64,000 bases of DNA, from contig JABJEI010000029.1 in assembly GCA_018663245.1 (NCBI GenBank), positions 12,821 to 76,820 on the forward strand. Direction: 5' to 3'. Both the position numbers and the translations under genes were made by a program. Below the pieces are notes generated by a model. That model ran no database searches and was not told where the DNA came from. It saw only the letters and a program-made list of their open reading frames with translations. Below, piece by piece: positions 6,495-63,177 of the stretch; positions within the stretch are counted from its first letter, which is position 1; each line of letters opens with the position of its first letter. This stretch comes from a bacterium (lineage in GTDB: Bacteria > Babelota > Babeliae > Babelales > JABJEI01).

Positions 6495-6504
6495 CACTAC
6501 TTAC

Positions 6505-7260: not shown

Positions 7261-9136
7261 CCTTTTTCCCTAAGTTAAAACTATCTGTTGGCCTATGATA
7301 CCCCATCACACGCGTCCACACTTGTGTTTTTTTATTACACTTGGGACACAATGGCTTCTCACCTGCCAAATATCCATGATCAATACAAATCGAAAAAACC
7401 GGAGTCACAGTAATGTATGGCAAGCTATAATTCTCTATAACTGTACGTACAAATCTCTTACATGCTTGTACTGAACTTATTTTTTCGTTCATGTATAGAT
7501 GAAGTACGGTTCCCCCAGTGTAGGTACACTGTAACTTGTCCTGTAATTCCAGAGCAAGGAAGGGATCATCTGTAAAATTAGCTGGAAGTTGACTGCTATT
7601 TGTGTAATAAATATTCTCACCCGAGCCAGCCCTAATGATATCAGGAAAAGCACATTTGTCCTCCTTTGCAAATCGATAGGTTGTACCCTCAGCCGGTGTT
7701 GCCTCAAGATTATACAGGTTCCCTGTTTCTTCCTGAAACTCACGTAAAAGATCCCGAATAAATTCGATAATCTTTAAGCACATTTGCACGCCCTCAGGAC
7801 TACTAACATCATGTACATCATCAGTAAAATTGCGTACCATCTCGTTCATACCATTAACACCAATGGTGCTAAAATGATTGTTAAAATGCTTAAGATAACG
7901 CCTGGTATAAGGATAAAGTCCACGGTCATACATCTCTTGTACAAAAACGCGTTTTTTCTCAAGTGTCGATTTTGCAAGCCTGCACAATCGCTCAACTTCC
8001 TTATACAACCCCAGTTCATCACCCTTAAAGCGAAACCCCAAACGAGCCATGTTAAGCGTAACAACTCCGATAGAGCCGGTCATTTCGGCCGAACCAAACA
8101 GGCCGTTGCCCCGCTTTAACAATTCACGCAAATCAAGCTGCAATCTACAGCACATACTCCTAACAGAATCAGGCTTGTACGCATTAGGATTTGGCACTTT
8201 ATTGCCCTGCTCATCCTTAGTAAATTGACTACCTATAAAATTCTGAAAATATGAGTTTCCAATCTTAGCAGTGTTTTCAAAAAGCGCTGTGGCCGCCTTA
8301 CTATCCCAGTCAAAATCGTCAGTTATATTAACCGTTGGTATTGGAAACGTAAAAGGCTGTTCATGCTGGTCACCCTTGGTCAGAACCTCATAAAAAGCCA
8401 CATCAATCATCTCAAGCTCTTGCTGGAAGTGCTCAAACGTCAAATCTTCGAGCCGATCAACTCCGCGCTCTCTGGCTTTAGCCAGCAATACTGGATCATC
8501 AACTCCTTCAAAAAAGTGCTTACCAGCTGTTTTTGGTGTCTGTTTTTTTAGGTCCTTTGGAACCGTAAAATCAAGTGTAATATTTGTAAACGGACACTGC
8601 CCCCATCGAGATGGAACATTAAGATTGTACACAAAACTACGCAACGCTTTAACTAAGTTTGTGTGGTCAACCTGATCACGAAAAACGTAAGGTGCCAAAT
8701 AAGTATCAAACGAACTAAACGCCTGCGCACCAGCCCATTCAGACTGTAATGTTCCCAAAAAATTTGCGGCTTGCCCCAGGGCTTCTCTTAAGTGTCGCGG
8801 TGGCTTACTAGCAACTTTACCCTGTATGCCATTAAACCCCTCTTCAAACAACACTCGCAAGCTCCACCCCGCGCAATAACCTGTTAAGAAATCAAGATCA
8901 TGAATGTGATAGTCTGCATTGCGATGCGCTTGGCCCTCTTCAGGAGCATACACACTATCTAACCAATAGTTGGCTATAATTTTACCTGCCAAATTATTTA
9001 CAAGTCCTGCACTACTGTAACCAAGATTGGCATTAGCATTAACTCGCCAATCTTGGCGACCAATATACTCTTGCACACAGTCAGAACAGCGAACAGTGCT
9101 ATTCCTATCAAGGCCCTTGCAATTGGTGTCTGTCAT
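7226..9136 (-). CDS. nrdD: Anaerobic (class III) ribonucleoside-triphosphate reductase
   Basis: C-terminal Zn-ribbon CPKC and glycyl-radical motif TRVMGYHRP. The length (636 aa) and overall sequence are typical of NrdD. Confidence 0.93.
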   Translation of the reverse strand: MTDTNCKGLDRNSTVRCSDCVQEYIGRQDWRVNANANLGYSSAGLVNNLAGKIIANYWLDSVYAPEEGQAHRNADYHIHDLDFLTGYCAGWSLRVLFEEGFNGIQGKVASKPPRHLREALGQAANFLGTLQSEWAGAQAFSSFDTYLAPYVFRDQVDHTNLVKALRSFVYNLNVPSRWGQCPFTNITLDFTVPKDLKKQTPKTAGKHFFEGVDDPVLLAKARERGVDRLEDLTFEHFQQELEMIDVAFYEVLTKGDQHEQPFTFPIPTVNITDDFDWDSKAATALFENTAKIGNSYFQNFIGSQFTKDEQGNKVPNPNAYKPDSVRSMCCRLQLDLRELLKRGNGLFGSAEMTGSIGVVTLNMARLGFRFKGDELGLYKEVERLCRLAKSTLEKKRVFVQEMYDRGLYPYTRRYLKHFNNHFSTIGVNGMNEMVRNFTDDVHDVSSPEGVQMCLKIIEFIRDLLREFQEETGNLYNLEATPAEGTTYRFAKEDKCAFPDIIRAGSGENIYYTNSSQLPANFTDDPFLALELQDKLQCTYTGGTVLHLYMNEKISSVQACKRFVRTVIENYSLPYITVTPVFSICIDHGYLAGEKPLCPKCNKKTQVWTRVMGYHRPTDSFNLGKKGEHRERVHFTE

Positions 9137-9511
9137 GGCTTATACCCCCTTAAATACAGTAGATTGATTACAATTCAGGTCAAAAAACCCGACTGAGACA
9201 AACCAGCCGGGACACTAATGCATTTTATATACGAATATTTACTCAGTCAATAGTTTTAATAAAAAACACAAATAGAGTGATATTGATTTTCTCCAAATCA
9301 ATAAGGTCCAACTTAAAACGAGCTAAATTTAGTTTGTCTTGTATATACAAAATGCCCTGCAAAAATGCACAGGTTTTCCATCTACATCTAAATTCTAACT
9401 GCATACTCACAACTATTTCACAGAAATTACACACAGCCCTTCACCTCTGCTGCTCATATTGGCTAAGCTGTGCCAAACAATTAAACGAACCCTGGATAGA
9501 AAGAGCAGTTC

Positions 9512-11131
9512 ATGTCAAAAATTACATCAATCACCTTAGCAACCCTTGTATGCACGAGCTTTGGGCAATCTAAGTGCGCCAATATTTACCTGCCACAAGC
9601 TATTGCAGCGCGAGCAGTTACTTCGGTAATCAAACCTAAAACCCGAACCTTTAAACAACGAGTAACACGTAATCCAACCATAAATGAACTTCTTGATACG
9701 CTTAACATGCTTCAACCGAAACATGCGCTAGCCTATATTATGTGGGCCATCAAGCAGGACAAAAATGATATACACAAAAACATGACGGCCCACGCTGGTC
9801 ATGGAGTCGAGCTCCCCGAAACAGAGCTAACGTTTTTACAAAACAGAGACAAGATCACACGCCCAGCTATCGAACAGACTCTTGGCATACAAATACCAGC
9901 CAAGGCCGCACGTATTGCATGGGCAGGGAGTGGCGGAGGCTATCGCGCTATATGTTTTAATCTGGGCTTTTTACGAGCTATGGAAGAGACTGGCCTGTTC
10001 GACACTGTAACTTACCTTGGTGGAGTGTCTGGTTCGACCTGGTTGCTTGGTGCCTGGTTACGCCACCAAACCTCTATAAAGAACCTAACTCATCTGCTCG
10101 AAAAACAGTTTAAAAATCCACTTATCGACGACTTTGATTTAACCGAAGCTATAAAGATGGGAGTTTTGCGAAAACTTTGCGGAGCCGAGCTTACCCTGGT
10201 TCATCTGTTTGGAATGTTTTTGGCAAAACGAATGTTTGGAGATCATGCACTCTCATACCACATTCGCCTATCTGATTTTGAACCACTATTTTTGGACAAA
10301 AATGCAAAAACGCCACCGCTCCCATTTTACACTGCTGGCGGAGCCCATGACCCAGAAACAATCTCTGTTGCATTCAGCCCTCTTAATACCTTTATCGACA
10401 GTTATAACAAAAAAACTGGTAAATACAGCCACACAAATTATCCAACATGGGCGCTAGGTCGTCGATGGAAAAGAGGCAAAACCACTTACGGCATGAGTGA
10501 GCATTTTGGTTATGTACTAGGAATTTGTGGTTCAGCATTCACCGTCAACATCGCTGAGGCCGCAGAGCGATACCAATCAATGCTTCCCGAAGCTCTGTTT
10601 GAAGCTGCCCACTGGATAAAAATTGGTAAAGAACAGATGCGACTTTCACCTGGATACCATTGGAACCCTGATTACAAAGTTCCACGAAGGCCATACTACA
10701 ACGAAAAAAGAAGCTTCTTGGTCGACTTTGGTGTGAAGCGAAACTGCGGTTGCGTTGAGGCACTTATGGCACCAGAACGGGACGTCCAAATTCTCTTTAT
10801 TGGCGACGCATCAGGTAACGTCACAGGCGCTCCAATGCTGCGAGCAGAACAAGAACGAGCTAATCTTATTGGCAGATCATTCCCTGAAATAGATTATGAC
10901 TCAATTGACGATCAGCCTCTTCATATATTCAAAAATGACGATCTACTCATAATCTATCTTATGTTCCAAAATCAGCACGACACCCCACTTACCAATACAT
11001 TTGTCACTAACTACAACAATCCGCCTGAGGCAATCGCTGCAATGAGCGATAAGGCATACAACATCATCATGGATAATGAAGCAAAAATAAAAGACGCAAT
11101 GAAGCAGTTCTTACAACGTAAAATAACATAA
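9512..11131 (+). CDS. Secreted cPLA2 / lysophospholipase-like phospholipase, paralog 2
   Basis: GSGGGYRA, GVSGSTW and GDASGN motifs; hydrophobic N-terminus. Confidence 0.75.
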   Translation: MSKITSITLATLVCTSFGQSKCANIYLPQAIAARAVTSVIKPKTRTFKQRVTRNPTINELLDTLNMLQPKHALAYIMWAIKQDKNDIHKNMTAHAGHGVELPETELTFLQNRDKITRPAIEQTLGIQIPAKAARIAWAGSGGGYRAICFNLGFLRAMEETGLFDTVTYLGGVSGSTWLLGAWLRHQTSIKNLTHLLEKQFKNPLIDDFDLTEAIKMGVLRKLCGAELTLVHLFGMFLAKRMFGDHALSYHIRLSDFEPLFLDKNAKTPPLPFYTAGGAHDPETISVAFSPLNTFIDSYNKKTGKYSHTNYPTWALGRRWKRGKTTYGMSEHFGYVLGICGSAFTVNIAEAAERYQSMLPEALFEAAHWIKIGKEQMRLSPGYHWNPDYKVPRRPYYNEKRSFLVDFGVKRNCGCVEALMAPERDVQILFIGDASGNVTGAPMLRAEQERANLIGRSFPEIDYDSIDDQPLHIFKNDDLLIIYLMFQNQHDTPLTNTFVTNYNNPPEAIAAMSDKAYNIIMDNEAKIKDAMKQFLQRKIT

Positions 11132-11132
11132 A

Positions 11133-12728
11133 ATGTACCAAGGTACTTTTAATAGTCGATACCTCATACTTGCCCTACTACTATCAACGCAAACTCATGC
11201 TTTTGAGCAAAATGAAACAATAAAAATGTTTGGTCAAAATCGCTCAGATAGAAAGTTTATGCAGCTACTTGAACCAGTAATCAGCGCCATTATGAACGAC
11301 CCATACAAAAATCTTACCGTAAACGTACGAGAGTCTAGCAATCTATGCTCACAAGAGCAGGGGTTCCTAACTCAACGTCACCATCACGTAAAAAAAAGCA
11401 TAGAAAATATCCTCGGACATTCTATCAAAAATGAACACGTACCAAAAATTGGTATTTGTGGTAGCGGTGGCGGATACCGCGCATTAGTTGCGATGTTTGG
11501 TAGTATCAGCGGATTTGAGCAAACAGGCTTACTTGATTGCGTAACTTATGCTTCGGGCCTTTCAGGTGCAACTTGGATGCTTGGAACCTGGTACGCACAT
11601 CAAGGAAACCTGCCACTTCTTAAAATTATCCTAAAAAGTGAGTTACAAAACTCGCTACTAAGCGATTTAGAAATAACAGCAATAATCAAAGATGGTTTCA
11701 TTAAATTTCTATACGGCCAAAAGCTTTCTCTGGTTGGCCTGTTTGGAAACATGGCCGCTAACAGGTTGTTTGGTGACTTTGGACGAGAAGCTTATAATCT
11801 CAAGTTTTCAGATATATCCGAAATGATTCGATACGGTAAAATGCCTATGCCCATCATGACAGCCATAACTGTTGAAGGTGGTTATTCATGGCTTGAGTTC
11901 ACACCTTTTGAAGTAGGCAGTGATCAGCTAGAATTCCACATACCAACCTGGTCCCTTGGACGACGTTTTGAGGGCGGTTTATCGACCAACCGAACGCCTG
12001 AAAACAGCCTAGGTTATATCATGGGACTATGCGGATCAGCATTCACGATCAGCCTATCTGAAGCCATGGAAGGCTACTCTAGATTCTTCCCATCTATTAT
12101 TTATGAAACACTGGATACTGTATCCGGATTCACTGAGATAGGCCACAGCAGAATTTCGCCAGGGATAATAAGCAACCCCCAATACAAAAACGCACAACGA
12201 CCTCTTAATCATTTCCCCGACCTTACCGTCGTCGATGGAGGCTTTTACTTCAATATTCCACTGCCAGCACTTCTAAAAAAGGAACGACAAGTTGATATGA
12301 TAATTGTTCTTGATCACTCTTCAGATATCGAAAACGCTCAAGAATTGCGTAAAGCAGCACGTTACGCAAAAAAACATGGCTATAGATTGCCAAAAATTAA
12401 CTATAGAAATTTACACACCAAAGCTGTAACTGTATTTGTTGACCCCGACCCAAGCATCCCGATGCTTCTTTACATACCATTGCTTAAGAATCCCGCTTAC
12501 TCAGAATTTGACCCCATAGCATGTCTTCATGAAGGCGGATATTGCCATACCTTCAATCTATACTACACCCCAGAACAAGTTACGCAGCTTTGCGATCTGA
12601 CAGAGTTCACAATAAAAGAGCACAAAGCCGAGTTTGTTGATGCAATAGAGATGGCAGTTGAACGCAAAAAAAGACAAACCCTTATTAAGCCACCACTAAC
12701 ATTCTTCACTTACAGCTCACATGACTAA
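11133..12728 (+). CDS. Secreted cPLA2 / lysophospholipase-like phospholipase, paralog 3
   Basis: GSGGGYRA, GLSGATW and VVDGGFYFNIP (cPLA2-like DxG..N.P) motifs. It starts 1 nt after the stop of paralog 2, so the two are probably translationally coupled. Confidence 0.78.
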   Translation: MYQGTFNSRYLILALLLSTQTHAFEQNETIKMFGQNRSDRKFMQLLEPVISAIMNDPYKNLTVNVRESSNLCSQEQGFLTQRHHHVKKSIENILGHSIKNEHVPKIGICGSGGGYRALVAMFGSISGFEQTGLLDCVTYASGLSGATWMLGTWYAHQGNLPLLKIILKSELQNSLLSDLEITAIIKDGFIKFLYGQKLSLVGLFGNMAANRLFGDFGREAYNLKFSDISEMIRYGKMPMPIMTAITVEGGYSWLEFTPFEVGSDQLEFHIPTWSLGRRFEGGLSTNRTPENSLGYIMGLCGSAFTISLSEAMEGYSRFFPSIIYETLDTVSGFTEIGHSRISPGIISNPQYKNAQRPLNHFPDLTVVDGGFYFNIPLPALLKKERQVDMIIVLDHSSDIENAQELRKAARYAKKHGYRLPKINYRNLHTKAVTVFVDPDPSIPMLLYIPLLKNPAYSEFDPIACLHEGGYCHTFNLYYTPEQVTQLCDLTEFTIKEHKAEFVDAIEMAVERKKRQTLIKPPLTFFTYSSHD

Positions 12729-15101: not shown

Positions 15102-16364
15102 ATGAAAAAATTAATACTCATTAGCCTGTTTCTAGCAGCTACCGCAGCATATACCCGCATCCCAAAAGGTCTAGACGGCGGAAGTAACCGCTGCTACTTC
15201 AACGCAACTCTTCAGTCACTGTGCAATATCGAGCAACTTTCAGATTACTTTATTAACAATACTGGAATCGTAAATAAATCCATAAACTTATATAAAGACA
15301 ATGACAATAAAAACAAGATCGTTAGTTCCAAAACAATAGTCACAGAGTTTGCCACAGCTTTAAGCCGAATGCGCAAGGCAACCAAGTCAATAACAATTTC
15401 CAACAAATTTTACCGCAATATTCAAGACAATTTCATTTTCCCCAAATTACGCAGAACTGATATCCGAGCCTACGACAAACAGCGAGATGCTACAGGATTC
15501 ACATCAGGCCTACTCGCAACCCTGGGAAATAACGTTAAAAGCTGCACAGCCTATCAACCACCAGGCTACACAGGAGTCGATGGCCCATGCAACATCGTAC
15601 CTGGTAAACTTTTTGCTTTTTCAGAAATTTACACAAAAATAGCAGCCGAAGATAAAACTGGAGACAAAGCGTACAAAAAAGATGACATACTTTCTATAAA
15701 AAACGACTACTCTGATAAGCTAAGCTTACCTATACCAAAACAAAACAAACCAAATCGTCTCACAGAATTACTTAACAACTATCATCAAGAACCCAACGAA
15801 ACAGACTTCACAATAAGTTACAGAAGTGATGGAAACCCAATTTACATAAAAGCCAAAACATTCATCACCCTGCAAAGCACGCCAGAAATTTTACAGTTAA
15901 TGTTCAAGCGACAAATTTACGCTAAAGACGGAACAATAACCAAAGACAATGCCAAAATCAGCTTCCCACAAGAGCTAGATCTTTCCGACTTCCCGCTGAC
16001 AGATAAAAACACAATCGGAAACAGAAACTACCAACTAATCGCCATTATCGCCCAGTCGGGCAGCATTACTGGTGGACACTACATCGCCTACACTCGTGAC
16101 GTTACCCAAACAAACAAAAATAAGCAGTGGTACAAGTGTGATGATTCTATAATCACACAACTCAATAACAAAAAAGCCCAAAAAGTTTTTGCCGGTGAGC
16201 ACGAAGGAGATTTCACTCCATATCTACTTTTTTACCAACGCCAAGATTCATTTAATGAGGCGTCGCAAATGGCAGGAGAAATTCCTGACATTTCCAAAGA
16301 CTTAACCAAGCTTAACGCACAGCTGGCAATCATCAAAAATGCAATCGACCAACAAGGAAGTTAA
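15102..16364 (+). CDS. Secreted ubiquitin-specific protease (USP/UCH, peptidase C19)-like protein
   Basis: Signal peptide, then Cys box GGSNRCYFNATLQSL, His box GSITGGHYIAYTRD and WYKCDDS. This is the eukaryotic USP core arrangement. Confidence 0.75.
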   Translation: MKKLILISLFLAATAAYTRIPKGLDGGSNRCYFNATLQSLCNIEQLSDYFINNTGIVNKSINLYKDNDNKNKIVSSKTIVTEFATALSRMRKATKSITISNKFYRNIQDNFIFPKLRRTDIRAYDKQRDATGFTSGLLATLGNNVKSCTAYQPPGYTGVDGPCNIVPGKLFAFSEIYTKIAAEDKTGDKAYKKDDILSIKNDYSDKLSLPIPKQNKPNRLTELLNNYHQEPNETDFTISYRSDGNPIYIKAKTFITLQSTPEILQLMFKRQIYAKDGTITKDNAKISFPQELDLSDFPLTDKNTIGNRNYQLIAIIAQSGSITGGHYIAYTRDVTQTNKNKQWYKCDDSIITQLNNKKAQKVFAGEHEGDFTPYLLFYQRQDSFNEASQMAGEIPDISKDLTKLNAQLAIIKNAIDQQGS

Positions 16365-25911: not shown

Positions 25912-26316
25912 TGGTGGAGGCGATGGGAATCGAACCCATGTCCGCACTAACTTAGATACACAGCCCTACATGCTTAGTCTTTAATTAATACGTGCAATAC
26001 CTCTGTAAAGACACAGAGTATATACTGCACGTCAGCTTCGTATACACAACCAGGTTACGCAGCTAAAAAACCTTGCCTGGTGCGACCTATCTAAAAGTTA
26101 CACGTAAACAGTGCGGATAGATGCACCTCTGTTTACGCGTAAACCCGAATAATGCGGGTCTACTGCAAAGGTTAGCTTACGCTTTTACGCGAGAGCAACC
26201 CCCACAGGTTGAGACTGATTGCCAGTTCAAAAATGAATGCTTGTTTTACGAGCACACATACAACGCTCGGCATGCTCCGTACACCCTTGCCAACACGTCG
26301 AAGCCAGTACGCCCCC
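25912..26316 (-). ncRNA. ssrA: tmRNA (SsrA)
   Basis: The minus strand starts GGGGGCGUACUGGCUUCGACG and ends GGGUUCGAUUCCCAUCGCCUCCACCA. The acceptor stem GGGGGCG/CGCCUCC includes the G3:U pair. The candidate tag frame at 26223..26185 encodes GNQSQPVGVALA then stop. smpB lies adjacent. Confidence 0.9.
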
Positions 26317-46446: not shown

Positions 46447-49255
46447 AAACTATCAATACACCCTAATTCTTGTGGTAATGATCGGCTGGTCTCTGCAAAT
46501 AAAGGCCATGCAACAATCATCATCAAGCAGTAGCTCGTCAACATCTACCACTCAAAAGGCCATCATGCCTACAGTGCAAAAAGTTACTGTTATTGAACAA
46601 GCCTCAAACATGCGTCGACTGATCATGCTATTCGATTTTAACTTTAACTCTTCTATTGTTCCAAAATCAGACGCTATGAGCACCGCTTTAGCAACAGCAC
46701 TAGCACAAAAATCTGCCCCTATTTTAGTTAGCAAGCAACTAATTTATAATTTTTATCGTGATATCTCATACTATCAAGCTGCACTTGACTCTTTTCTATC
46801 AAAAGACATAGATTACAGCCCCCCTAATTCGGACGTTTTTGGCAACTATTTTATGGCCACAGGGTTAACCGCCCAACACAAGGTTTCACAGCTTATAAAT
46901 CAACACGGCAAAGATGTAGCTATTACCTACATCTTCAACAAGCTTGACCAGGCACTTGAACTCCTTGGCGGCAATTCATTAATAGCCCAACAAGCAACAC
47001 AAAGTATCGAAAGCAATTCTACACAAATACAACCTGGAGAATGGAACATTTACACCGTTGATAATCTTTTTTATCTACTTGTTCCCAAAAGCTATGTGCA
47101 AGCTATTCTATCCCCCAATCAAACACCTACAAGTGCCACCTTAACAGACATACAAACAAACCAACCCTTCACACGCCGAGAACAAAAGTTAGGCCTGAAG
47201 GTCGACAAACTCACGGCTCACTCAAACTTAAATACTCTAAGCAGTATTCAACAGTTCTTTTTGTCAGTTAATAAACTTAAAACATCTCAAAGTCACAAAC
47301 ATTTTATGCAAAATAAAAATGAGATCACACAACTGCTCAGTAAAGTCCTTATCAGCAAGCTTGACGCTCCACAACAGAAAGAAAGCCCTGTATTCAATAT
47401 TTACCTTGCTGGCCACGGCCGCAATTCTAAAGACATATCTGACATAGCAATACAACAAAAGATTTTAGCAAATCTTACTAATGAAAAAATAAAAACGGCT
47501 GAAGAGCAAGATGCGAAATCCGCTCTTGAGGATATTTTTGAAAATAAAATCAAACAAACAATTACCAGCGCCTCTGGCACCATTGCATCACTGCCTGTAA
47601 CAACGCACTTTGCACAGCTTCTTGACCAATTAAACTACCCATATAACACCAATTCATTAACATATCTCTCATGCTTTGCTGGTGGAAGTAATCGTCAATT
47701 GTCCGTTTATGACATTATCAAAAACATCCTTAAAATATATAATTACACAATGACATGTAGCTCCGCCACAGCAACAACTTCATCAATAAATGACATTCGA
47801 TTTATGCCATCCATTGCTATAACAAGCAGCGGTATTCCTGTCTTCAGTGTAAATATAATTTTTCCACAAAAGCTCACAAAATTCTTTAACGAGCTCGAAC
47901 AACAAGCCACCCATAAAACAGCTACACAATATTCAACAAATAAGCAATTAACCGGAAACGTAAAAAACCCAGCTAAAGTTACCAGTTGGTCAGACATCCT
48001 GAACAATGTTATTCAATTCAAAGATCCTGAAACAGGAAAAATCAACAGTTTGAGTAACATCCCCCTGATTCGCCCTCGCAACACAAATAAATGGTTTTCA
48101 ATAAGTTCATCAGGTAAAAAAGAAATTTTAGAACTTACCCCTACCCGCATGACCGCTTTCGAAAATGAAAAAACACTCAACGCCGACAACTATGCCACCC
48201 TGCTTCTAAGCGCCAACCATGTTCCGATAACTATAAAGATGACCCAACTTATTCCAATAATTTCAAAATCAGCTGGCAACTCTAGTCACGTCATAAAACA
48301 ATTAGATGCCCCCACACTTGGCATTGATGAATTGGCTGCAAAAGTATTTTTACCAATAAGAGATCTCGATGATGCAAAGCTCTTCTTTATAAAACAACTT
48401 GAAGTCAAAAATTCTGGTGAACTCAAAAATAGTTTAAAGACAACAGGAAGAAGCGTAATTCTAAAAAACGTACTATTTTTGAACAATTCAGTAAATCCAC
48501 TTAAATTTAGTACAAGCAACCCTAAGAAAAAACATGGAATAATATTCAAATATGGCAATAAGTATTACAAAAACATATATTCAACTGACGAAATATATAT
48601 AGACTTAAGCTTCGCATCTATTGGCTCGAAAAGTTACAATCAATACGAAGATTTTTATCTCGACAGCATTGACTTTACCGCCCACGGCCCAACGTCACCA
48701 CACTGGAACAGCCCGGGCAAAGTCCCTCGTTCAATAAATAAATTTGGCAAAAAAATAGCCGAAAAAACAAAAGTGTCAAAAAATAAAAAGATGCCAAAAG
48801 TACCCCGCATTTTTAACACCCCATCTCCAGTAAAAAGATCTAGAAAAGAGTACAAAACAGGCGATTATGCAACAAAAGCTAAAATGAAACGAATCGAATC
48901 TAAAGAACAAACCGCTAGATTTGCGAATATGTCTAAAGAAGAACGGGCTATATTTGCGAAGAAAATTAAAGCACGACACGCCCAACGTGCAAAGAAAGCT
49001 AAAAGAAAGCGGACCCTATTTGCAACCCCAACCAAACCAACATCGGCGACGCCTACATCACCATCGTCAACCAGCCAGTCGTTCAAAGAACACGAAAGTC
49101 CGTTCAAGCGCCCTCGACGAAAGGCGCCTAAGCCTCCATCAACACAATTAAACACCTCATTCAATGATAATGACCAAAACATTATAGATGAACAAACGCA
49201 ATTCAATACCTCGTTCGATAACGACGACCAAGATCATGGGATGCCCGATGCGTAA
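46439..49255 (+). CDS. Giant secreted protein, paralog C
   Basis: The start ATG is embedded in ATGCGTAA, overlapping the stop of B by 8 nt. Signal MRKNYQYTLILVVMIGWSLQIKA. FNIYLAGHG (His codon 47414-47416) and LTYLSCFAGG (Cys codon 47672-47674). The tail contains TPSPVKRSRKEYK and KKAKRKRTLF. Confidence 0.85.
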   Translation: MRKNYQYTLILVVMIGWSLQIKAMQQSSSSSSSSTSTTQKAIMPTVQKVTVIEQASNMRRLIMLFDFNFNSSIVPKSDAMSTALATALAQKSAPILVSKQLIYNFYRDISYYQAALDSFLSKDIDYSPPNSDVFGNYFMATGLTAQHKVSQLINQHGKDVAITYIFNKLDQALELLGGNSLIAQQATQSIESNSTQIQPGEWNIYTVDNLFYLLVPKSYVQAILSPNQTPTSATLTDIQTNQPFTRREQKLGLKVDKLTAHSNLNTLSSIQQFFLSVNKLKTSQSHKHFMQNKNEITQLLSKVLISKLDAPQQKESPVFNIYLAGHGRNSKDISDIAIQQKILANLTNEKIKTAEEQDAKSALEDIFENKIKQTITSASGTIASLPVTTHFAQLLDQLNYPYNTNSLTYLSCFAGGSNRQLSVYDIIKNILKIYNYTMTCSSATATTSSINDIRFMPSIAITSSGIPVFSVNIIFPQKLTKFFNELEQQATHKTATQYSTNKQLTGNVKNPAKVTSWSDILNNVIQFKDPETGKINSLSNIPLIRPRNTNKWFSISSSGKKEILELTPTRMTAFENEKTLNADNYATLLLSANHVPITIKMTQLIPIISKSAGNSSHVIKQLDAPTLGIDELAAKVFLPIRDLDDAKLFFIKQLEVKNSGELKNSLKTTGRSVILKNVLFLNNSVNPLKFSTSNPKKKHGIIFKYGNKYYKNIYSTDEIYIDLSFASIGSKSYNQYEDFYLDSIDFTAHGPTSPHWNSPGKVPRSINKFGKKIAEKTKVSKNKKMPKVPRIFNTPSPVKRSRKEYKTGDYATKAKMKRIESKEQTARFANMSKEERAIFAKKIKARHAQRAKKAKRKRTLFATPTKPTSATPTSPSSTSQSFKEHESPFKRPRRKAPKPPSTQLNTSFNDNDQNIIDEQTQFNTSFDNDDQDHGMPDA

Positions 49256-51026
49256 AAACTATCAATCCACCCTAATTTTTGTAGCAATGATTAGCTTGTC
49301 GTTACAAACAATGGCAATGCAGAAATTCACATCGAGCAATAACGCCTCATCATCTAAACAGGCGACCAACACAAAAAGCTCAAAAGCTAAATACTGGGGA
49401 AAGTCCGGTTCAATAACTACTGGTTACAAAATTAGTCACGACGCAGACATGCGCCGATTAATTATTCTTATTAATGACGAAGTGATGACTGACTATCAAG
49501 ATTCGGATGCAATACTATACGAACTAATCAATGCAATATCTGATAAAAGCGCACCAATCCTTATCAAGGGTCTATTTGACTCTTTTATAGTTAATAAAAG
49601 CAACCTGGTAGAGCTAAAAAAACAAAGGCCGCTACACCAACTCCCCATTCATATATGGAATATGTACCTGTCTGGTCATGGAGACCAAGATCCATACGAT
49701 CACTACAAGCGCCACGCAATGGAACTGTTAACAAAAGCTAACTACTTACAAAAAGACGAAAAAAACAAGTTGCTCTCAGGCTCAAAGATAATGTCTAGGC
49801 CTGTAACAGAATTTAGCAAAAAGCATGTAAAGGCCAAATCCTACGCAGCAATGGCGGGCCTTCCCCTATACACACATTTTACCCCACTATTGAACTATCT
49901 TAATAACAACATCAAAACAAACTTTCTTATGTACAACAGCTGCTTCTCTGGTGGAACTTCTCGCATTACCAATTTTTATGACTTTGAGCTCAATAAATTT
50001 AAACGCTATAACTATACAATCGCTACCGGAACCACAACCCCTACCCCTTCCCTCACCTCAAGCCCAAGAATATATGTAAAGGAAGCAAGCCAAAGCTTTT
50101 ATACAATCACTAGTCAAAAATTTTATCCTTTCTTCAAAAGCCTAGAGGCAAGTTATTACCCACTTGCAAACAATACAATTCAGCCCGACACCCAACGCCA
50201 ACCTACGCCACTATCGTGGAGCCAAATTATAGAAAACATTCATAAGCATAAAACGAACCTTTATAACCTTCCTTTAGTTCGGCCCAAAAACACAATAACC
50301 TGGTTTTTTGCTGGCAAGAGTGGTGGCCCGATACTTGAGCTAACGCCAACCAAAGTTAATATTTGGCAGAAAGAACAACCTGTTCTAGACATCAGCTCTT
50401 ATCGCGCGGTTTTGCTTGGATCGCGCTACATCCCACTCACACTCAAGTTATCCTGTCCGGTCGCCCTAATACAGCAGACAGCACTGCAACAAACCTACAT
50501 CAAAGAAATTTATGCCCCCACAATTACACTCATGAAGCTTCTTGATACAACAATTTTCCCACTCAAAGAAATGGCCCAATCAAGCACACTCTTAATCGAT
50601 AAATTAACCGTAAAAAGCAGCTCTATGTTTGCCAAAATACCAATATTAAGGAGCAAAACCTCTACCCTGAAAAACTTAATATTCTCAATTTCTACACAAA
50701 CACCATTCGATGAACGACAGCAATGGCACATAGATTTTACTGTAAACAACGTCCACCACAGCATCCAGGGAGATGCTACAAAAAAAGGTTTCAACAGGGA
50801 CAAACAGTCATGCATAAAGCCTATAGAAAAGTATTTACCAAAGTTTAAAAAACAAAAAAAAGAGATACACGAACATGCAAAATTGTTGGGTGAAGCAAAT
50901 CTAATTGATGTTTCCACAATCTCCAAAGTTTTGGATGAAAAGCCAGACTCTCTTTCAAAAACTCCACGCATAGTTAGCGACTCTCTAAAAAAATACGCAA
51001 TAAAACAGAAGTTAGAAAAAGCTTGA
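49248..51026 (+). CDS. Secreted protein, paralog D (shorter and more divergent)
   Basis: The start sits in a second ATGCGTAA overlap with the stop of C. Signal MRKNYQSTLIFVAMISLSLQTMA. WNMYLSGHG (His codon 49677-49679) and FLMYNSCFSGG (Cys codon 49941-49943). It lacks the NLS-like tail. Confidence 0.8.
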   Translation: MRKNYQSTLIFVAMISLSLQTMAMQKFTSSNNASSSKQATNTKSSKAKYWGKSGSITTGYKISHDADMRRLIILINDEVMTDYQDSDAILYELINAISDKSAPILIKGLFDSFIVNKSNLVELKKQRPLHQLPIHIWNMYLSGHGDQDPYDHYKRHAMELLTKANYLQKDEKNKLLSGSKIMSRPVTEFSKKHVKAKSYAAMAGLPLYTHFTPLLNYLNNNIKTNFLMYNSCFSGGTSRITNFYDFELNKFKRYNYTIATGTTTPTPSLTSSPRIYVKEASQSFYTITSQKFYPFFKSLEASYYPLANNTIQPDTQRQPTPLSWSQIIENIHKHKTNLYNLPLVRPKNTITWFFAGKSGGPILELTPTKVNIWQKEQPVLDISSYRAVLLGSRYIPLTLKLSCPVALIQQTALQQTYIKEIYAPTITLMKLLDTTIFPLKEMAQSSTLLIDKLTVKSSSMFAKIPILRSKTSTLKNLIFSISTQTPFDERQQWHIDFTVNNVHHSIQGDATKKGFNRDKQSCIKPIEKYLPKFKKQKKEIHEHAKLLGEANLIDVSTISKVLDEKPDSLSKTPRIVSDSLKKYAIKQKLEKA

Positions 51027-53594: not shown

Positions 53595-54466
53595 ATGAAA
53601 AATATATTACTCGCCATAGGTATGCTCACAACATTCTTTGTACAAGCACAACCAATAGATAACTAGGTATGCTCACAACATTCTTTGTACAAGCACAACC
53701 AATAGATAACGCGGCAAAAGAAAAATTGTTCCCCGCAAAACCATTGATCCATGATGCAGTACAAGTTGGCAAACTTAACCTAATCAAGCAGCTAGTAATA
53801 AAAGATAAAAGGTCTGTAAATGCAAAGAATAGCACACTGTGGACACCTCTTCACATTGCGGCCAACATGGGAAGAACAGGCATCGTGCAATTTTTAATCA
53901 CAAACGGAGCCGATGTTAACGCCCAATGTAGCTTAGGTGGGACACCATTTCACTATGCCAACAATGTGAGTATCTCAAAAATTTTAGTAACAAACGGAGC
54001 CGATTTTTGCATCACAGATAAAATTGAATCGAAAGGTCCGTACCAGATTCATAACAAAGAAATAATTAAATTTTATAGATCATTAAGCCGACTAAATTTA
54101 TTATATAAACGCACGACCCCCAAAAAATACTTTTTCAACAAGTACATAAACGGGAGGCCAAAACAAAGCACTGAAAATCTCTTCATTTTAAATCTATTAT
54201 TTAAAGAATATAAAACAAGCAAAAGCCTGATCACTACCTTCACCGAGGAAGACTTCCGCTTCATCTGGGATAAAGATTGGGACCGAGACGAAGCAAAGCC
54301 CCTATCACAAGGACTAAATACATTGTATCGCCTTGCTAAAGAAAATAATTCTAAAACTTGCGTAAAAGATCTTTTAGATTGCAGCATAAAATTAAGAGTG
54401 TTGTCTGGACTAGGAAATGGAAATTCGGGCCTTTGCGTTATTCAACTTATTCAAAGTTATGAATAA
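53595..54466 (+). pseudogene. Ankyrin-repeat protein gene with its signal-peptide region interrupted by a 47-bp tandem duplication
   Basis: The ATG at 53595 encodes MKNILLAIGMLTTFFVQAQPIDN and then hits a TAG (53664-53666) created at the duplication junction. The remaining ORF, 53669..54466, restarts at the internal Met (MLTTFFVQAQPIDNAAKEK..) and carries ANK repeats (TPLHIAANMGRTGIVQFLITNGADVN, GGTPFHYA...LVTNGADF). Confidence 0.75.
53617..53710 (+). repeat. Perfect 47-bp tandem duplication (2 copies)
   Basis: taggtatgctcacaacattctttgtacaagcacaaccaatagataac occurs at 53617-53663 and again at 53664-53710 with 100 percent identity. Confidence 0.97.
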
Positions 54467-54487: not shown

Positions 54488-56518
54488 TTAAGCTTGGTCT
54501 TCTGGTACTTCTTGGAAGCACTCAGCCGTATCATCAACCTGCCAGTCAGTATGACCAACAACCAGGAATGCACACTCAAAGCCAGCCAAAACTCGTTTAG
54601 CTGATTTGCGCTCTTTCTGAAGGCTGCTGATTATACCCTGGCCAATCTCTTTGCCGCGACGGTAAATAGTAATCTGTCCGCCATCAAGCAGGAATCCAGA
54701 ATTTACCTTACCACCAGCAACAATACCAACGCGCTTTATATCAAACACCTTGAGCACAGAGAAATCACCAATTTTTTTCGAGATCATTTTGATCTCTTTA
54801 CCTTGCTCAAGTAGTTTTTCGACATCTTCGATAAGCTTGTAAATAATCGTGAACAAGCGAATATCAACACCTTCACGAGTCGCCAGTTGAACAGCATTAG
54901 GCTCTACTTTTGAATGTAGGCCATAAATAATTGCCCCTGAACTTACCGCAAGCGTAACATCGCTTTCTGTAACAGAACCGACACCATCCAAAATGATATT
55001 AATCTTCTGATCAAAAGACAGGCTTACCTTGTCCAGAGAGCCACGAACTGCTTCTCTTGAAGACTGGGTGTCAGACTTTACGATAACGTTTAGCAGATTC
55101 GAACCTGGTTGCAATAGCAAGCGTCGCGGAACTGGCGCACTGCCACGTTGTCGCAATTTTTTGAACTCTGAAGCAGAAATAACATTAAAGCTATCACCCG
55201 GCTTTGGAAGATCTTGGAATCCGGCAATTCTGGCCGGTTGTGACGGTTGCACTTGTGTAACACGTTTTCCGTACGAATCAACAAGAGAGTTAACTCGACC
55301 AAACGTCCTACCAGCCGCAAAATAGTCACCAATTTTAAGGATACCGTTTTGACAAATAACAGTCGCAACAGGACCTCGACCTCGTTCAAGCTTTGATTCT
55401 AAAACATAGCCTTGAGGAGCTACTGACAAATCTGCTTTTAATTCAAGCATTTCTGCTTGTAGCGCAACTATTTCTAGAAGATTGTCTACGCCATCACCCT
55501 TGAGGGCAGAGACGGGAACCGTTGATATTTGACCACCCCAAGCTTCAGGCAACAGATCATTCTGTGCAAGCTCAGAGTAAATAGCTTCAACTCGCTTAGG
55601 ATCAGCTTTATCCATCTTGTTGATAGCAACAATCATTGGAATTTTAGCTGCACGAGCGTGGTTAATTGCTTCAACAGTTTGAGGCATAATGCCATCATCA
55701 GCTGCTACCATCAAAATAGCTATATCAGCGACGCGAGCACCCCGCATACGAATGGCAGAAAATGCCTCGTGGCCGGGCGTATCAAGGAAAATAAGGTTGC
55801 CGTGATCTGTAGTTACTTCGTAAGCACCAAGATGCTGTGTTATACCGCCAGCTTCTCGCTGAACAACTCGCGTATTGCGAATATAATCCAAAAGAGTTGT
55901 CTTGCCATGGTCAACATGGCCCATAACAACAATAACCGGAAGTCTTATTTGAGCATTTTTTGAGGCTGCAGTTTTTTTAATTGTTTTGCTTTGGTCGCTG
56001 TCCTGCTTTTCTGCATAAGTAGCTTTTAACTCAAAGTCCTCTGCCAATTGAAGAACCTGCTTTTCATCAAGCGGATGGTTCATCGTGCAGGCAAGGCCTT
56101 TGCGAATAAGCGTCAAAATAATTTGGTTAACAGGAAGACCAGAGCGCTGAGCAAATTGCCCGACGGTCATAGGCTCAACAACAATAACATTGCCTGCAAC
56201 TGCCTTTAAAACTTTGTTTAAACGACGTTTTTGCGGATCAATGTCAAGTTTGTCATCATCTTCGACTTTACCAGGAACCTGCTCATTGATAGCGCTCAAC
56301 TCAGGCTTTTCCTGCTTGCCAGAAGGCTGGCTAGGAGAAGCTTTGGATGCTTGCTGTGAAGACTTTTGTCCAACACCAAGCAACACTTCAAGTTGGGCTA
56401 TCTTATCATCAGGAATAACTGACATATGATTGGCAACATCAACATTTTGCCCTTTTAGGGCATCGATGACCTGCTTACTAGTCAAATCATAAATTTTTGC
56501 GAACTCATATACGCGCAT
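54488..56518 (-). CDS. infB: Translation initiation factor IF-2
   Basis: N-terminal IF2_N ([21 protein letters not shown]) and G domain [27 protein letters not shown]. Confidence 0.97.
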
Positions 56519-56573: not shown

Positions 56574-57683
56574 TTACTCTTCCCCCGAATCCATATCTTT
56601 TTCGTCATCATTCAGGCCAATGTCCTCTTCGGACAGTATAGCTTCTGCATGCTGACGATCAACATCGCCGTCTCGAACAAGATGAATCTTATGTCCAACA
56701 AGTTCTGAGGCCAGTCCAATGTTTTTACCCATCTTACCGATTGCAATTGAATGTTGCTCTTCATCGACCCAAACATTAATGTTCTGGTCATCAACAATCT
56801 CAACACGCTCAACGTGCGCAGGCTTCATCGCCCCACGAACGAGAACTTCCAAAGATTCTGACCACGAAATAACATCAACACGCTCATCACCTAATTCTTT
56901 GAGGATAGGCTTGATACGCGACCCATGAACACCAACACAGGTGCCTACAGGGTCAATGTTATCATCGTTTGAAGCAACAAGTACTTTTGATTTGTAGCCT
57001 GGAGACCGAACGATTTTTTTAATTTCGACGATTCTCTCATAAACTTCTGGTATTTCCAGCTCAAACAATAACTCTAGGAATCTAGGCGAAACACGGTCAA
57101 GAATCAACTGATTCTCGCTTACCGGCTCCTCAAGAACCTCTTTTAGCAAGGCGCGAACAGTATAACCTGCAACACAACGCTCACCAGCAGGAGTCAAAGA
57201 CTTGGGCAGGAATGCAAAGGTGTCGTTAACCACAATCGTAACACCGCTACGCTCACACTTGTGAACAACGCCGTTAATGATTGTGCCTTCTTTTTCTTTG
57301 AATTCTTTGTAAACCGCAGCAGCTTCAACCGCTCGGATTTCTTGTGATATAATTTGCTTGGCTCGTAAAATCTCAATGCGGCCAATTGTTCCTTCAAACG
57401 GAACATTGATGATATCACCAATTTGGGCATCTTTTTTGAATTCACGGGCTTTACGAAGATTCATTTGAATCAGGCTGTCTTCAACCGCAGAAACGGTCTC
57501 TTTATCGACAAACACATCAATATCGTCTGTTTTTTTGTTGTAAGCAGCCGTTAGAGGTATTTCTGGATAGCGTTTGCTATACGCTCCAAGCATACCCTGG
57601 CATATAATATCGGCAACGACGGATCGGTCTAAGCCGCGATCCTGAACAAGTTCGTCTATGACTTGAAAAAGCTTCAACCGCAT
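56574..57683 (-). CDS. nusA: Transcription termination/antitermination factor NusA
   Basis: N-terminal domain, S1 and KH domains (GxxG: IGKMGKNI). Canonical position upstream of infB. Confidence 0.95.
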   Translation of the reverse strand: MRLKLFQVIDELVQDRGLDRSVVADIICQGMLGAYSKRYPEIPLTAAYNKKTDDIDVFVDKETVSAVEDSLIQMNLRKAREFKKDAQIGDIINVPFEGTIGRIEILRAKQIISQEIRAVEAAAVYKEFKEKEGTIINGVVHKCERSGVTIVVNDTFAFLPKSLTPAGERCVAGYTVRALLKEVLEEPVSENQLILDRVSPRFLELLFELEIPEVYERIVEIKKIVRSPGYKSKVLVASNDDNIDPVGTCVGVHGSRIKPILKELGDERVDVISWSESLEVLVRGAMKPAHVERVEIVDDQNINVWVDEEQHSIAIGKMGKNIGLASELVGHKIHLVRDGDVDRQHAEAILSEEDIGLNDDEKDMDSGEE

Positions 57684-57875
57684 CCCTTGAGTTGGTTAAA
57701 GAAAAAGTTTTGAAAACGCAATGTAAGGCTAAGTTTACCAAAAACAGAAAAAATAAAAAGCTTTGCCATTCGCCGCCCTTGATGTAGTAGGAATACAATG
57801 TGTAACAATGGTACCTCTTATTATTATTTATTAACTTACTTATTATAAGTAGTAGTAACAGGCATACCCCCTTTT

Positions 57876-58181
57876 GGTGGATAACTCACTACCCTAATCA
57901 CAAAAGATCCCATGTATCCACAATTTAAGTTTTTTTAGGTGGTGGATAACTTGGTGGATAACTTGGTGGATAACTCAAGGCCGAATGTGGATAACTTATT
58001 ATCACCTATCGGATAGCCCCTGTAGGAGCACAAAACCAGTGTCGCACTCTGTGTCGCTTTTCGTTATCAGCCTGTCAGAGCAGCTATTGAGGGGGGTCTG
58101 TTTTTCAAAATGCCGAGTTATCCACATTCACCTATGAGTTATCCACCACTTATCCACCACTTATCCACCAAGTTATCCACC
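57876..58181. promoter_or_regulatory. Cluster of 11 DnaA boxes in two inverted arrays: candidate oriC (or another DnaA-binding locus)
   Basis: Boxes in TGTGGATAA orientation: 57876-57884, 57941-57949, 57953-57961, 57965-57973 (all gGTGGATAA) and 57986-57994 (perfect). Boxes in TTATCCACA orientation: 57914-57922 (gTATCCACA), 58118-58126 (perfect), and 58139-58147, 58150-58158, 58161-58169, 58173-58181 (all TTATCCACc). Spacing within the arrays is 11-12 bp. An AT-rich tract at about 57815-57860 contains TAAGTAGTAGTAA. Confidence 0.7.
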
Positions 58182-58205
58182 ACCCTTTTTTGGCCGATGA
58201 GGCTA

Positions 58206-58784
58206 TTATGAATTCTTTGACAGGTCGAAAGCCTGTTTTAGGTCGAGGATCCACATATCGCGCATTTTAGAGTTGCGCAAGATGTATGCTGGGTGGAACA
58301 CTGGCTTAACGCTCAGGCCGTTTTTGTTGATGATTTTTTTTCGTGCGTCGGTCATTCGTATAAGTTTTTCTTCAAGAATCACTTTTGTGGCACAGCTGCC
58401 AAGGGAGCAGATCACTTTTGGCTGTATAATATCCAGCTCGCGCTTTAAGATAAGCTTTGTGCAGGGACTGATTTCGCCTTTGTTTGGGAGTCGATTGTTT
58501 GGCGGCCTGCATTTAACCACATTTGTTATGTAATAATCTTCTGGCTTTAAGCCTATTTTAGCAATTGTTTTGCGTAGTAGTTGACCAGATCGGCCTATGA
58601 ATGGGCGTCCAACTTTATCTTCTTCCCGGCCAGGGCCTTCACCCAAAAATAAAAGTGGCGCGTTTGGGTTGCCTTCTCCAAAAACAACTTGCTGGCGACC
58701 AAGGCTGGCTAGTGGGCAATGTTTGCAGGCTTTATAGAGATTGTGTAGGGCTTCAAGCTGTTCATTTTTGTTGGTGTTTGTCAT
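58206..58784 (-). CDS. Family 4 uracil-DNA glycosylase
   Basis: [36 protein letters not shown], and the C-terminal HPAYILR motif. Confidence 0.88.
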
Positions 58785-61506: not shown

Positions 61507-63177
61507 TTATATGTTGTGGCCTAAGTCTTGCCAGTGCAAATCAAGCTCATCTACTGTTGCTTTATTAAGTTCATTGAGCTGATTTTTTTCATGATCGGCA
61601 AGTATTTTTAGAAGGGCCAGTTTTTTACTTTTGTTTATTCTAGAGTCAATCAAATCTTGGGGAGACTTTTCGTCCTCGTTTGCGATCGAAAGACTTGCTC
61701 CGTTTTGAATTAAAAACTTGATAATCTCTAGTCTTTTGGCCCAGTCTTTGTTACCTGATAGCGCATGATGAAGTGCCGTATCACCGTAACGGTCTTGCAT
61801 GTTAAAATCAGCGCGTCTATCGGCCAAGAGTTTGAGGCTGTCTAGGTCCAAATTTTTGGTAGCAAGGTGTGTAAGGCTATCTTTATCTTTTTTGGAGTAA
61901 CCGAATTGCTGATCTACGTTTTTAACGTATGGGATTACATGCTTTAGCATTCCCTTTGAGGTTATTACATCTATTAGTTGGCCGTATTTTCCTACATTTA
62001 ACTTAAGAATGTCGTCTTCATTTTTGATAAGTTCGATAAGTTTTTTTGTGTTGCCTTCGTAAATGGCCTTTAAGTGCGGTGAAGGGTAGCTGTACAAAGG
62101 CTCGCGTCTGTCGCTTTTTAAGATTGGCTCCCACCTTACGATGGTCTTTTTCCAACCAGGATAGTTTTTGATTAGCCATTGGAATAGCGATACGTCTCCA
62201 TAAAACGAGTCGCCTGGTTTTGTGTCCCAATATCCGCTGACGGGTAAGTTGATTTCTTGTGTTCTGAACGTCCGATAGCCTTTAAGTTTTTTAAATGTAG
62301 CGATAGGATGTGATACGGTATTTGCAAGTTTAAGATCCAGGGTGCTTGCGTACTCCATTGGCAGATTGAGGCTTGCATCGTCTGGTCTTCTGAGTAGAAA
62401 TTCGTATGGCAAGCGATTGTCTCCCCATGCGCCTATTAAAAATGGAGCCTTAGTGTTTAGAAGGAAGTCGATTATTGCCCTATTCCCTTCTATTCGATAC
62501 AAGTCATCTGCGCTAACGTTATCATCAATTACTGCGAAGTATTGCATTAGCATTAGGCCGCTTTTTGGGCGAAGTAGATTGTAGGCTTGTGCAAAAGTAC
62601 CAACGGGGTCATTGAGGTGAATAAAGCAATATTGTGAAACAATAAGGTCAAATTGTGGATTTTCTTCAAAATTGTCAGGGTCTTGTTTATAAAGAAACCG
62701 TCCTAAGCTTAAGTCCAGATCTTCAACTTTAAAATTGGCAATATTATATTTTTTACAGATCCCAGCTTCTTCTATTTCTGTCACGTACTTCTCTCCAACT
62801 ACACTTACAATATTGACGGTAATATCGCTAGGTAGCTCACCCTTATCTGCAAGCTCGTTCAGCTTTTCAAATAAAGTATTTCCCCACTGGAAGTGCCCTG
62901 CGCCCAAGTCGAGGATATAGAAAATCTTTTGATTTTTTGGTGCGGTCTTAATAATTGTTTTTGCAAGGTCGGTAGTATTGATTTGCATGATGCTGTAAGA
63001 CGATTGGCCGTCAAAGTTCCAACGACTGAATTTGCCTAGAGATTCAAAGTTATCATTAATAGAGAATTGTAAATTGTCGGGTCTATTTTTTGGGTTAAGT
63101 TTAGCGAGTGCACTTGAGGTAACTAGTGCAAGGGCAAGTAAGCAGGCTACTTTGAGCTGTTTGATCAATTTATTCAT
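61507..63177 (-). CDS. Secreted class I SAM-methyltransferase-like domain fused to C-terminal ankyrin repeats
   Basis: Signal peptide LLALALVTSSALA. Motif I YILDLGAGHFQWG, FDLIVSQYCFIHL, LLRPKSGLML. The C-terminal ANK reads YGDTALHHALSGN...IKFLIQNGASLSIANEDEKSPQDL. Confidence 0.65.
   Translation of the reverse strand: MNKLIKQLKVACLLALALVTSSALAKLNPKNRPDNLQFSINDNFESLGKFSRWNFDGQSSYSIMQINTTDLAKTIIKTAPKNQKIFYILDLGAGHFQWGNTLFEKLNELADKGELPSDITVNIVSVVGEKYVTEIEEAGICKKYNIANFKVEDLDLSLGRFLYKQDPDNFEENPQFDLIVSQYCFIHLNDPVGTFAQAYNLLRPKSGLMLMQYFAVIDDNVSADDLYRIEGNRAIIDFLLNTKAPFLIGAWGDNRLPYEFLLRRPDDASLNLPMEYASTLDLKLANTVSHPIATFKKLKGYRTFRTQEINLPVSGYWDTKPGDSFYGDVSLFQWLIKNYPGWKKTIVRWEPILKSDRREPLYSYPSPHLKAIYEGNTKKLIELIKNEDDILKLNVGKYGQLIDVITSKGMLKHVIPYVKNVDQQFGYSKKDKDSLTHLATKNLDLDSLKLLADRRADFNMQDRYGDTALHHALSGNKDWAKRLEIIKFLIQNGASLSIANEDEKSPQDLIDSRINKSKKLALLKILADHEKNQLNELNKATVDELDLHWQDLGHNI

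Follow-up and report, generated by a model that had tools for sequence, protein, structure and literature searches.

A DnaA-box cluster between a uracil-DNA glycosylase gene and nusA is very probably the chromosomal replication origin of an uncultured marine Dependentiae bacterium

Introduction

Does a dense cluster of DnaA boxes that lies apart from dnaA mark the chromosomal origin of replication (oriC), or a site that titrates DnaA or regulates a neighbouring gene? The question is raised by a 64,000-nt stretch of bacterial DNA (hereafter, the window), in which the intergenic region between nusA and a gene of the uracil-DNA glycosylase (UDG) family carries such a cluster. Adjacency to dnaA or dnaN, a common indicator of oriC, is absent here; it is an indicator and not a defining feature, and oriCs that do not adjoin dnaA are familiar, that of E. 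coli among them. An initial annotation, made from the letters of the sequence alone, read the cluster as a candidate replication origin and named a DnaA-titrating or regulatory locus as the alternative. Homologues of the encoded NusA place the organism in Candidatus Dependentiae (TM6), and contigs identical to the window sequence occur in marine metagenomes; data sets that contain the organism include ERZ4201010 and samples from Saanich Inlet. Judging from its sequence features and their recurrence in relatives, the cluster is very probably the chromosomal oriC of this uncultured marine bacterium, located in the UDG-nusA intergenic region and not beside dnaA.

Results

Eleven DnaA boxes form two opposed arrays

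A scan that allowed up to one mismatch detected 11 boxes of the TTATCCACA type at 57876-58181, two of them perfect and nine with one mismatch, and thereby reproduced exactly the list of the initial annotation. Shuffled versions of the window, searched with one mismatch allowed, gave about 17 matches per 64 kb, or 0.08 per 306 bp, and against this baseline the Poisson probability of 11 boxes in 306 bp is 2e-20, or 1e-15 after correction for all window positions. The earlier estimate that such a 9-mer is expected about once by chance is right for perfect 9-mers only, as one mismatch raises the expectation to about 17 in the window. Eleven boxes in 306 bp constitute a box cluster in the sense applied to oriCs (at least three boxes with a mean spacing below 100 bp).

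A single minus-strand box with one mismatch (TTATCCACC, 57876..57884), termed the proximal box, lies next to the candidate unwinding element described below. It is followed by a gap of 56 bp (57885..57940) and by array B (57941..57994, minus strand), whose four boxes have the same orientation as the proximal box and start at 57941, 57953 and 57965 (TTATCCACC) and at 57986 (perfect), with spacings of 12, 12 and 21 bp. The first three had been described as three tandem 12-mers; the tandem units are there, but the first differs by one base (gtggtggataac). Beyond an inter-array spacer of 123 bp with 51% AT (57995..58117), array A (58118..58181, plus strand), distal to the unwinding element, contains five boxes reading TTATCCAC[A/C], located at 58118 (perfect), 58139, 58150, 58161 and 58173 (TTATCCACC) with spacings of 21, 11, 11 and 12 bp.

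No recognisable element was found in the inter-array spacer (57995..58117), and its sequence showed no apparent conservation among three origins compared by eye, unaligned. Searches with Rfam, run across the window at gathering scores and across 57600-58300 with E values up to 1, gave no sign of a small RNA or structured element between UDG and nusA. One further plus-strand box with one mismatch, GTATCCACA (57914-57922), lies in reverse orientation inside the 56-bp gap. It was considered as a conserved element and rejected; because it recurs in only one other locus (L092), it is probably incidental.

Slippage can produce tandem repeats, and such a repeat might resemble DnaA boxes by chance. 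The repeat units here are longer than the 9-mer (AGTTATCCACCA), as slippage would predict, and the arrays are expanded in some relatives (L037 and L070). Set against the chance probability of 2e-20 obtained in the window alone, this explanation has an almost negligible likelihood, and it is taken up again with the comparative data.

A box, a G/C-containing spacer and DnaA-trios adjoin an AT-rich core

The AT-rich tract that the initial annotation had noted upstream of the left array is present, with an AT content of 90% at 57820-57849. Its core (57815..57846), the candidate unwinding element, is the AT maximum of the intergenic region and lies directly beside a DnaA box, as at oriCs, ending 29 nt from the proximal box. 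The TAGTAGTAA repeats, with TAAGTAGTAGTAA at 57846-57858, and the G/C-containing spacer caggcataccccc at 57859-57871 were likewise found where they had been reported. Read in the orientation of nusA, the window presents TTATCCACC-AAAAGGGGGTATGC-CTG TTA CTA CTA CTT-ATAATAAG..., that is, the proximal box, a 14-nt spacer containing a G/C run (57862..57875, AAAAGGGGGTATGC), a run of trinucleotides (57847..57861) and the AT-rich core.

As published, the rule used to search for a basal unwinding system (BUS) asks for a box with at most two mismatches to TTATCCACA, a spacer of 0-16 nt (commonest, 13) and at least three consecutive DnaA-trios with a central A and the consensus 3′-[G/A]AT-5′, on the strand set by the orientation of the box (Richardson 2019, Pelliciari 2021). 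The window has a box with one mismatch (TTATCCACC, 57876-57884), a spacer of 14 nt and, on the plus strand, the run 3′-GAC AAT GAT GAT GAA-5′ (5′-CTG TTA CTA CTA CTT-3′ on the minus strand), oriented to the box as in C. difficile. Box, spacer and run thus conform to the published rule, and the arrangement recurs in most relatives examined, so that the earlier reading of these trinucleotides as DnaA-trios behind a spacer can be retained. Since the plus strand carries the trios at 57847..57861, it is predicted to be the single strand bound by DnaA.

On the nusA side of the AT core, TTA repeats (TTATTATTA, 57818-57826) form a mirror image of the trio run. A hairpin or cruciform was considered as an explanation and rejected. 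The unwinding element of the window is predicted to form no stable hairpin and folds no better than its shuffles (z = +0.9). Among relatives, the best inverted repeat in this element has on average 9.4 matched bases, compared with 7.7 in shuffles, and complementarity within a locus barely differs from that between loci (9.37 versus 8.94 of 13, p = 0.018). Because of this small difference, the mirror symmetry is a family-level sequence feature and not good evidence for structure.

Strand composition switches at the cluster

GC skew of the plus strand is negative from position 1 to approximately 57 kb and positive from 58 kb, and AT skew flips in the opposite way. The right side was extended by 10 kb using an identical ENA contig (0 mismatches in the 10.7-kb overlap), and over the window plus these 10 kb the cumulative G-C curve reached its minimum at the edge of the right array (58185), with skew remaining positive for 16 kb beyond. 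A GC-skew minimum at this site was the test that the initial annotation had named in favour of an origin, and the locus passed it. The leading strand is enriched in G and T, and the polarity of the negative-to-positive switch is that of an origin, on the local scale covered here (74 kb, and 21 kb per relative).

Plus-strand skew is negative in 35 of the 36 genes to the left of the cluster, 19 of which are on the plus strand and 17 on the minus strand, and positive in 10 of the 11 genes to the right; mean skew at third codon positions (GC3) is -0.30 and -0.24 on the left versus +0.22 and +0.29 on the right. Because the sign change holds for genes on either strand, the switch is independent of transcription direction. 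Little or no co-orientation of genes with replication accompanies this strong skew: in the extended sequence, 17 of 36 genes are co-directional in the left arm (1-57800) and 1 of 11 in the right arm (58200-74000).

These observations bear on the alternative that the cluster is not an initiation site but a DnaA-titrating or regulatory locus, or a DnaA-controlled nusA promoter. A dense box cluster, far from dnaA and directly upstream of nusA, is what such a locus would look like, and DnaA-box clusters that are not origins exist in E. coli (datA and DARS) and in B. subtilis, sharing with the present one their position away from dnaA. Those clusters, however, lack an unwinding element and trios, and no switch in strand composition marks their position, whereas here a switch that does not depend on gene orientation falls at the cluster, an unwinding element is present, and the succession of box, spacer, trios and AT core is an unwinding device rather than a titration device. 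A simple sigma-70 scan found no promoter-like site between the cluster and nusA, and the idea of a nusA promoter inside the origin was rejected on the same result. The alternative put forward by the initial annotation is therefore unsupported, and we consider it very improbable; the reading as a replication origin is the one supported by the skew switch at the cluster, the box-trio module and its recurrence in relatives.

The cluster lies between a UDG gene and nusA, apart from dnaA

The region is flanked on the left by nusA (56574..57683, minus strand; precomputed Pfam domains), which is transcribed away from the origin and followed by infB (54488-56518, minus strand). On the right, the UDG-family gene (58206..58784, minus strand; Pfam PF03167, E = 1.7e-34) abuts the origin with its 3′ end, its transcription running toward the origin, and beyond it a C11 peptidase gene, a ComEC-like gene and an ankyrin/methyltransferase gene also lie on the minus strand. 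A leftward fork would thus be co-directional with nusA-infB transcription and a rightward fork head-on with the genes on the UDG side. That both flanking genes lie on the same strand had been called atypical for an origin; the same-strand arrangement proved to be the conserved one in Dependentiae.

Neither dnaA nor dnaN was found among the 27 ORFs of at least 150 aa in the window that were scanned with Pfam. Searches by tblastn with E. coli DnaA, a query that Pfam scores as a full DnaA, detected no homologue in the window, in the 10 kb added to it, or in 80 relatives as far as 10 kb from nusA. The earlier remark that the window contains no dnaA or dnaN was therefore upheld, and the description of the cluster as far from any dnaA holds as far as the sequence reaches, which is at least 58 kb on one side and at least 16 kb on the other. 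A scan of metagenomes for tandem TTATCCACC boxes yielded 119 loci, mostly further nusA-linked Dependentiae origins; nusA was nearby in at least 32 and dnaA in only six, the latter with GC contents of 35 to 72%.

Other genes in the window include priA, polA, rho, tsaD, alaS, nrdD, a mutS-like gene and several eukaryote-like effector genes. Host-interaction or eukaryote-like genes at 4513-6441, 9512-12728, 15102-16364, 53669-54466 and 61507-63177 encode three patatin/PLA2-like phospholipases, a UCH-type ubiquitin hydrolase and ankyrin-repeat proteins, a set that is consistent with an intracellular parasite of protists. A full-length tmRNA was detected by Rfam at 25912-26316 (minus strand, 143.5 bits), whereas ARAGORN listed neither tRNA nor tmRNA for the whole window. 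Four consecutive large ORFs (915, 973, 946 and 612 aa) without a Pfam match occupy 40662-51026 on the plus strand; two TTATCCACA-type boxes 18 bp apart (40663 and 40681) lie at the start of the 915-aa ORF, and a perfect box lies at 42869.

The layout is conserved among Dependentiae

For comparison, 80 Dependentiae/Babeliales loci, one genome per species, were collected in a scan with a NusA alignment. NusA relatives on megabase contigs share the gene order M16 peptidase, ComEC, C11 peptidase, UDG, a long intergenic region, nusA and infB. In about 65 of the 80 relatives, the densest box cluster of the 21-kb locus starts 400-690 bp upstream of nusA, typically with four boxes in one orientation and then four in the other. 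The local cumulative skew minimum falls within a few hundred bases of nusA in about 75 of the 80, with skew negative on the UDG side and positive on the nusA side; this recurrence of the switch is a further argument against a titrating or regulatory locus.

Read in the orientation of nusA, the common module consists of an inverted box array, a spacer of approximately 100 bp, an array of three or four boxes in 11-bp register, a 58-bp gap, a single box, a spacer of 13-14 nt, CTA/TTA repeats (DnaA-trios) and an AT-rich core. Complete Dependentiae chromosomes also contain it, among them AP025250.1, CP074345.1, OY969699.1 and OY970169.1. In relatives aligned on the nusA-proximal box (position 0), co-oriented boxes lie at -67, -78, -89 and -100 and inverted boxes at approximately -209 to -243; the corresponding positions in the window are 0, -65, -77, -89 and -110, then -242 to -297. 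Neighbouring boxes in relatives are spaced by 11 bp in 226 cases and by 12 bp in 67. The gap between the proximal box and its array has its mode at 58 bp and minor modes at 46, 69 and 80 bp, in 11-bp steps, while the inter-array spacer measures about 88-134 bp with a mode near 100 bp, that of the window being somewhat longer at 123 bp. About 60 related origins possess the oppositely oriented array, with three to five or more boxes in 11-bp register.

The proximal box is the most conserved element of the family alignment, with a mean of 8.4 of 9 matches at offset 0. Past it, most loci read TTATCCAC[A/C], a 13-14-nt spacer often ending in GCnTCAC, three to five CTA/TTA units and an AT-rich stretch, and the family trio consensus is cctaTtaTtAtt. 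The spacer from the box to the first run of at least three trios is 13-14 nt long in 35 of 60 relatives and 3-5 nt in seven more, at least four of which have another box 10-12 bp upstream. Across the family, the stretch from the proximal box to array B shows no conserved motif beyond weak A and T tracts. Position-averaged matching over the family showed no peak from -55 to -1 that would point to hidden low-affinity boxes in 11-bp register within the 58-bp gap, and neither a sigma-70-like promoter (simple scan) nor an IHF-like site (by eye) was found that would explain its conservation.

Where consensus boxes are missing, the layout persists with other box sequences, namely TATTCAC[A/C] (L022), TTTCCACAT (L091) and TCTCCAACAG (L054), or with degenerate boxes (L031). 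In a soil MAG (L010/L016), an insertion at 4289-9751 with two large ORFs of 1111 and 669 aa, neither with a Pfam match on record, separates the origin from nusA, and despite this insertion a degenerate box-trio module and the skew minimum remain beside UDG in L010. Nearly all boxes of one origin are of the same variant, and the variants differ among lineages (TTATCCACA in L012 and L021, TTATCCACC in the window, L013 and L026, and TTATCCAAC in L081), a pattern that points either to the repeats evolving in concert or to their co-evolution with the DNA-binding domain of DnaA. The distal array is greatly expanded in L037 (approximately 9321-9720; about 15 consecutive boxes in 11-bp register, and 20 minus-strand boxes within 400 bp) and comprises 11 boxes in L070 (approximately 9355-9750).

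With respect to slippage, inverted arrays, a single box and perfect TTATCCACA copies occur at fixed offsets in dozens of species whose flanks have diverged, and slippage or chance alone is effectively refuted by these comparative data. The same comparison addresses a further possibility, that the nusA-linked site is a secondary or relict origin and that main initiation takes place beside dnaA elsewhere in the chromosome. This has been published for Babela massiliensis, whose origin was set 152 nt upstream of dnaA (PMC4378268), and dnaA of the present organism lies outside the sequence covered. The Babela assignment, however, rested on GC skew alone, and it is at the nusA site that the skew sign changes in genome after genome. 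Moreover, about 60 species keep the 11-bp register, the 58-bp gap and the 14-nt spacer, whereas in a relict these would not have lasted. Five MAGs labelled Babeliaceae (L024, L041, L055, L057 and L076) also carry the nusA-linked cluster and lack dnaA within 10 kb of nusA. A secondary or relict origin is accordingly very unlikely, and the nusA-linked site is preferred as the main origin.

Some relatives carry a second, mirror-image module

Mirrored trinucleotide repeats are common among the relatives. In eight of 71 related loci (L028, L041, L048, L050, L058, L060, L073 and L083), an inverted box was also found on the nusA side of the AT core, at approximately +62 to +84 from the proximal box. 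In six of these eight, the mirror box is separated from the mirrored trios by 13-14 nt or by 4 nt, the 4-nt spacing matching that of the near side, so that a complete second module is formed; a complete mirror copy (trios, a 13-14- or 4-nt spacer and an inverted box) thus occurs in at least five to seven related species. The window has the mirrored TTA repeats only, without a mirrored box, and is therefore canonical rather than bilateral.

Discussion

The nusA-linked oriC is an ordinary, canonical DnaA-dependent origin and no new kind of origin. Its points of interest are the phylum-wide linkage to nusA and UDG, an unusually rigid geometry, and the joint presence of E. coli-like opposed arrays and a Bacillus-like box-trio module.

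The observed elements, their geometry and conservation, and the skew switch allow a mechanism to be proposed, in which DnaA binding, unwinding and helicase loading are inferred steps. ATP-DnaA would bind the proximal box (57876-57884) and the co-oriented array B (57941-57994), whose 11-12-bp register would allow head-to-tail DnaA oligomers to form. The conserved gap of 56-58 bp would hold these two elements in helical phase and would probably leave room for a bend. From the proximal box, a DnaA filament could then extend over the 14-nt spacer onto the plus-strand trios (57847-57861), stretching and opening the adjacent 90% AT core (57815-57846). Array A (58118-58181), in the opposite orientation, may act like the Right-DnaA subcomplex of E. 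coli, stabilising the opening and helping to load a second helicase. Forks departing both ways would give rise to the observed switch in strand composition.

With the origin placed, the replichore layout is also fixed for this marine bacterium, whose phylum is known almost solely through metagenomes, and the UDG-nusA intergenic region offers a simple landmark by which Dependentiae genome assemblies can be oriented or checked. The approximately 60 to 80 related origins, which share one geometry and differ in box sequence, array length and symmetry, give a ready-made basis for comparing the ways in which box arrays are combined with a box-trio unwinding module.

A bolder proposal, which we regard as unlikely though worth stating, is that the Dependentiae origin represents an ancient fusion of fixed geometry between an E. 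coli-type two-array system and a Bacillus-type box-trio system, and that the repeats on the far side of the AT core represent a second unwinding system acting on the opposite strand. If so, DnaA filaments could engage both strands from both sides, the species of the window would have a half-degenerated version, and the phylum would provide a natural series on the interconversion of one-sided and two-sided origins. The published dnaA-linked origin of Babela would in that case need re-examination.

Among systems known from other bacteria, bilateral oriCs, in which box clusters flank the unwinding element (Yoshida et al. 2026), share a feature with only the eight of 71 relatives in which a mirrored box lies beyond the AT core, toward nusA. 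The origin of Chromulinavorax destructans, a cultured member of Dependentiae, was predicted at 651641-652233 from GC skew and TTATCCACA boxes (Deeg et al. 2019). That prediction and the present one have in common the phylum, the two signals and a similar size (about 590 bp), and differ in that the text of Deeg et al. 2019 gives coordinates only, without architecture or neighbouring genes. The origin of Babela massiliensis was placed from GC skew alone upstream of dnaA (PMC4378268), and since Babeliaceae MAGs carry the nusA-linked module and have no dnaA within 10 kb, this assignment may need checking.

The unwinding module is that of the BUS of B. subtilis and of C. difficile oriC2: a TTATCCACA-type box is followed by a short G/C spacer, by at least three 3′-[G/A]AT-5′ trios and by an AT-rich element. 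The spacer is 14 nt here versus a commonest length of 13 nt, and the trio run matches in form that of C. difficile, 5′-CACCTACTACTATTACTACTATGA-3′; in both the run and its orientation to the box, the window also resembles B. subtilis. In B. subtilis the module lies between dnaA and dnaN, whereas here it lies between UDG and nusA and not next to dnaA. The present origin further differs from those of B. subtilis and C. difficile in not being bipartite and in its proximal box, which in Dependentiae is usually single, with tandem pairs in few relatives, instead of a tandem pair.

The boxes of E. coli oriC all occupy the same side of the unwinding element, a proximal group in one orientation and a distal group in the other, and the Dependentiae origin repeats this plan. 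Its boxes are all on one side, a proximal high-affinity box and the next array are co-oriented and the distal array is opposed, boxes within arrays are 11 bp apart (9-mers with 2 bp between them), a gap of approximately 46-58 bp separates the proximal box from its array, and dnaA is not adjacent. The window accordingly has the array layout of the E. coli-type double DnaA-oligomerisation region (DOR), two opposed arrays on one side with boxes 11 bp apart; array A resembles the Right-DOR of E. coli, array B resembles the array part of the Left-DOR, and the proximal box (57876-57884) corresponds to R1 in E. coli and to box 6 in B. subtilis. The IHF and GATC (SeqA) sites of E. coli have no recognised equivalent: no IHF-like site was recognised in the 56-bp gap by eye against the consensus, and the region has one GATC versus 1.2 expected, so no control of the Dam/SeqA type is expected. 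Other differences from E. coli are that most boxes here are near-consensus rather than of low affinity, that a spacer of approximately 100-123 bp takes the place of the single R2 box between the arrays, that the unwinding element has Bacillus-type trios instead of 13-mers, and that the flanking genes are nusA and UDG instead of gidA and mioC. The layout of the origin thus joins a pair of opposed box arrays, as in E. coli oriC, to a Bacillus-type basal unwinding system.
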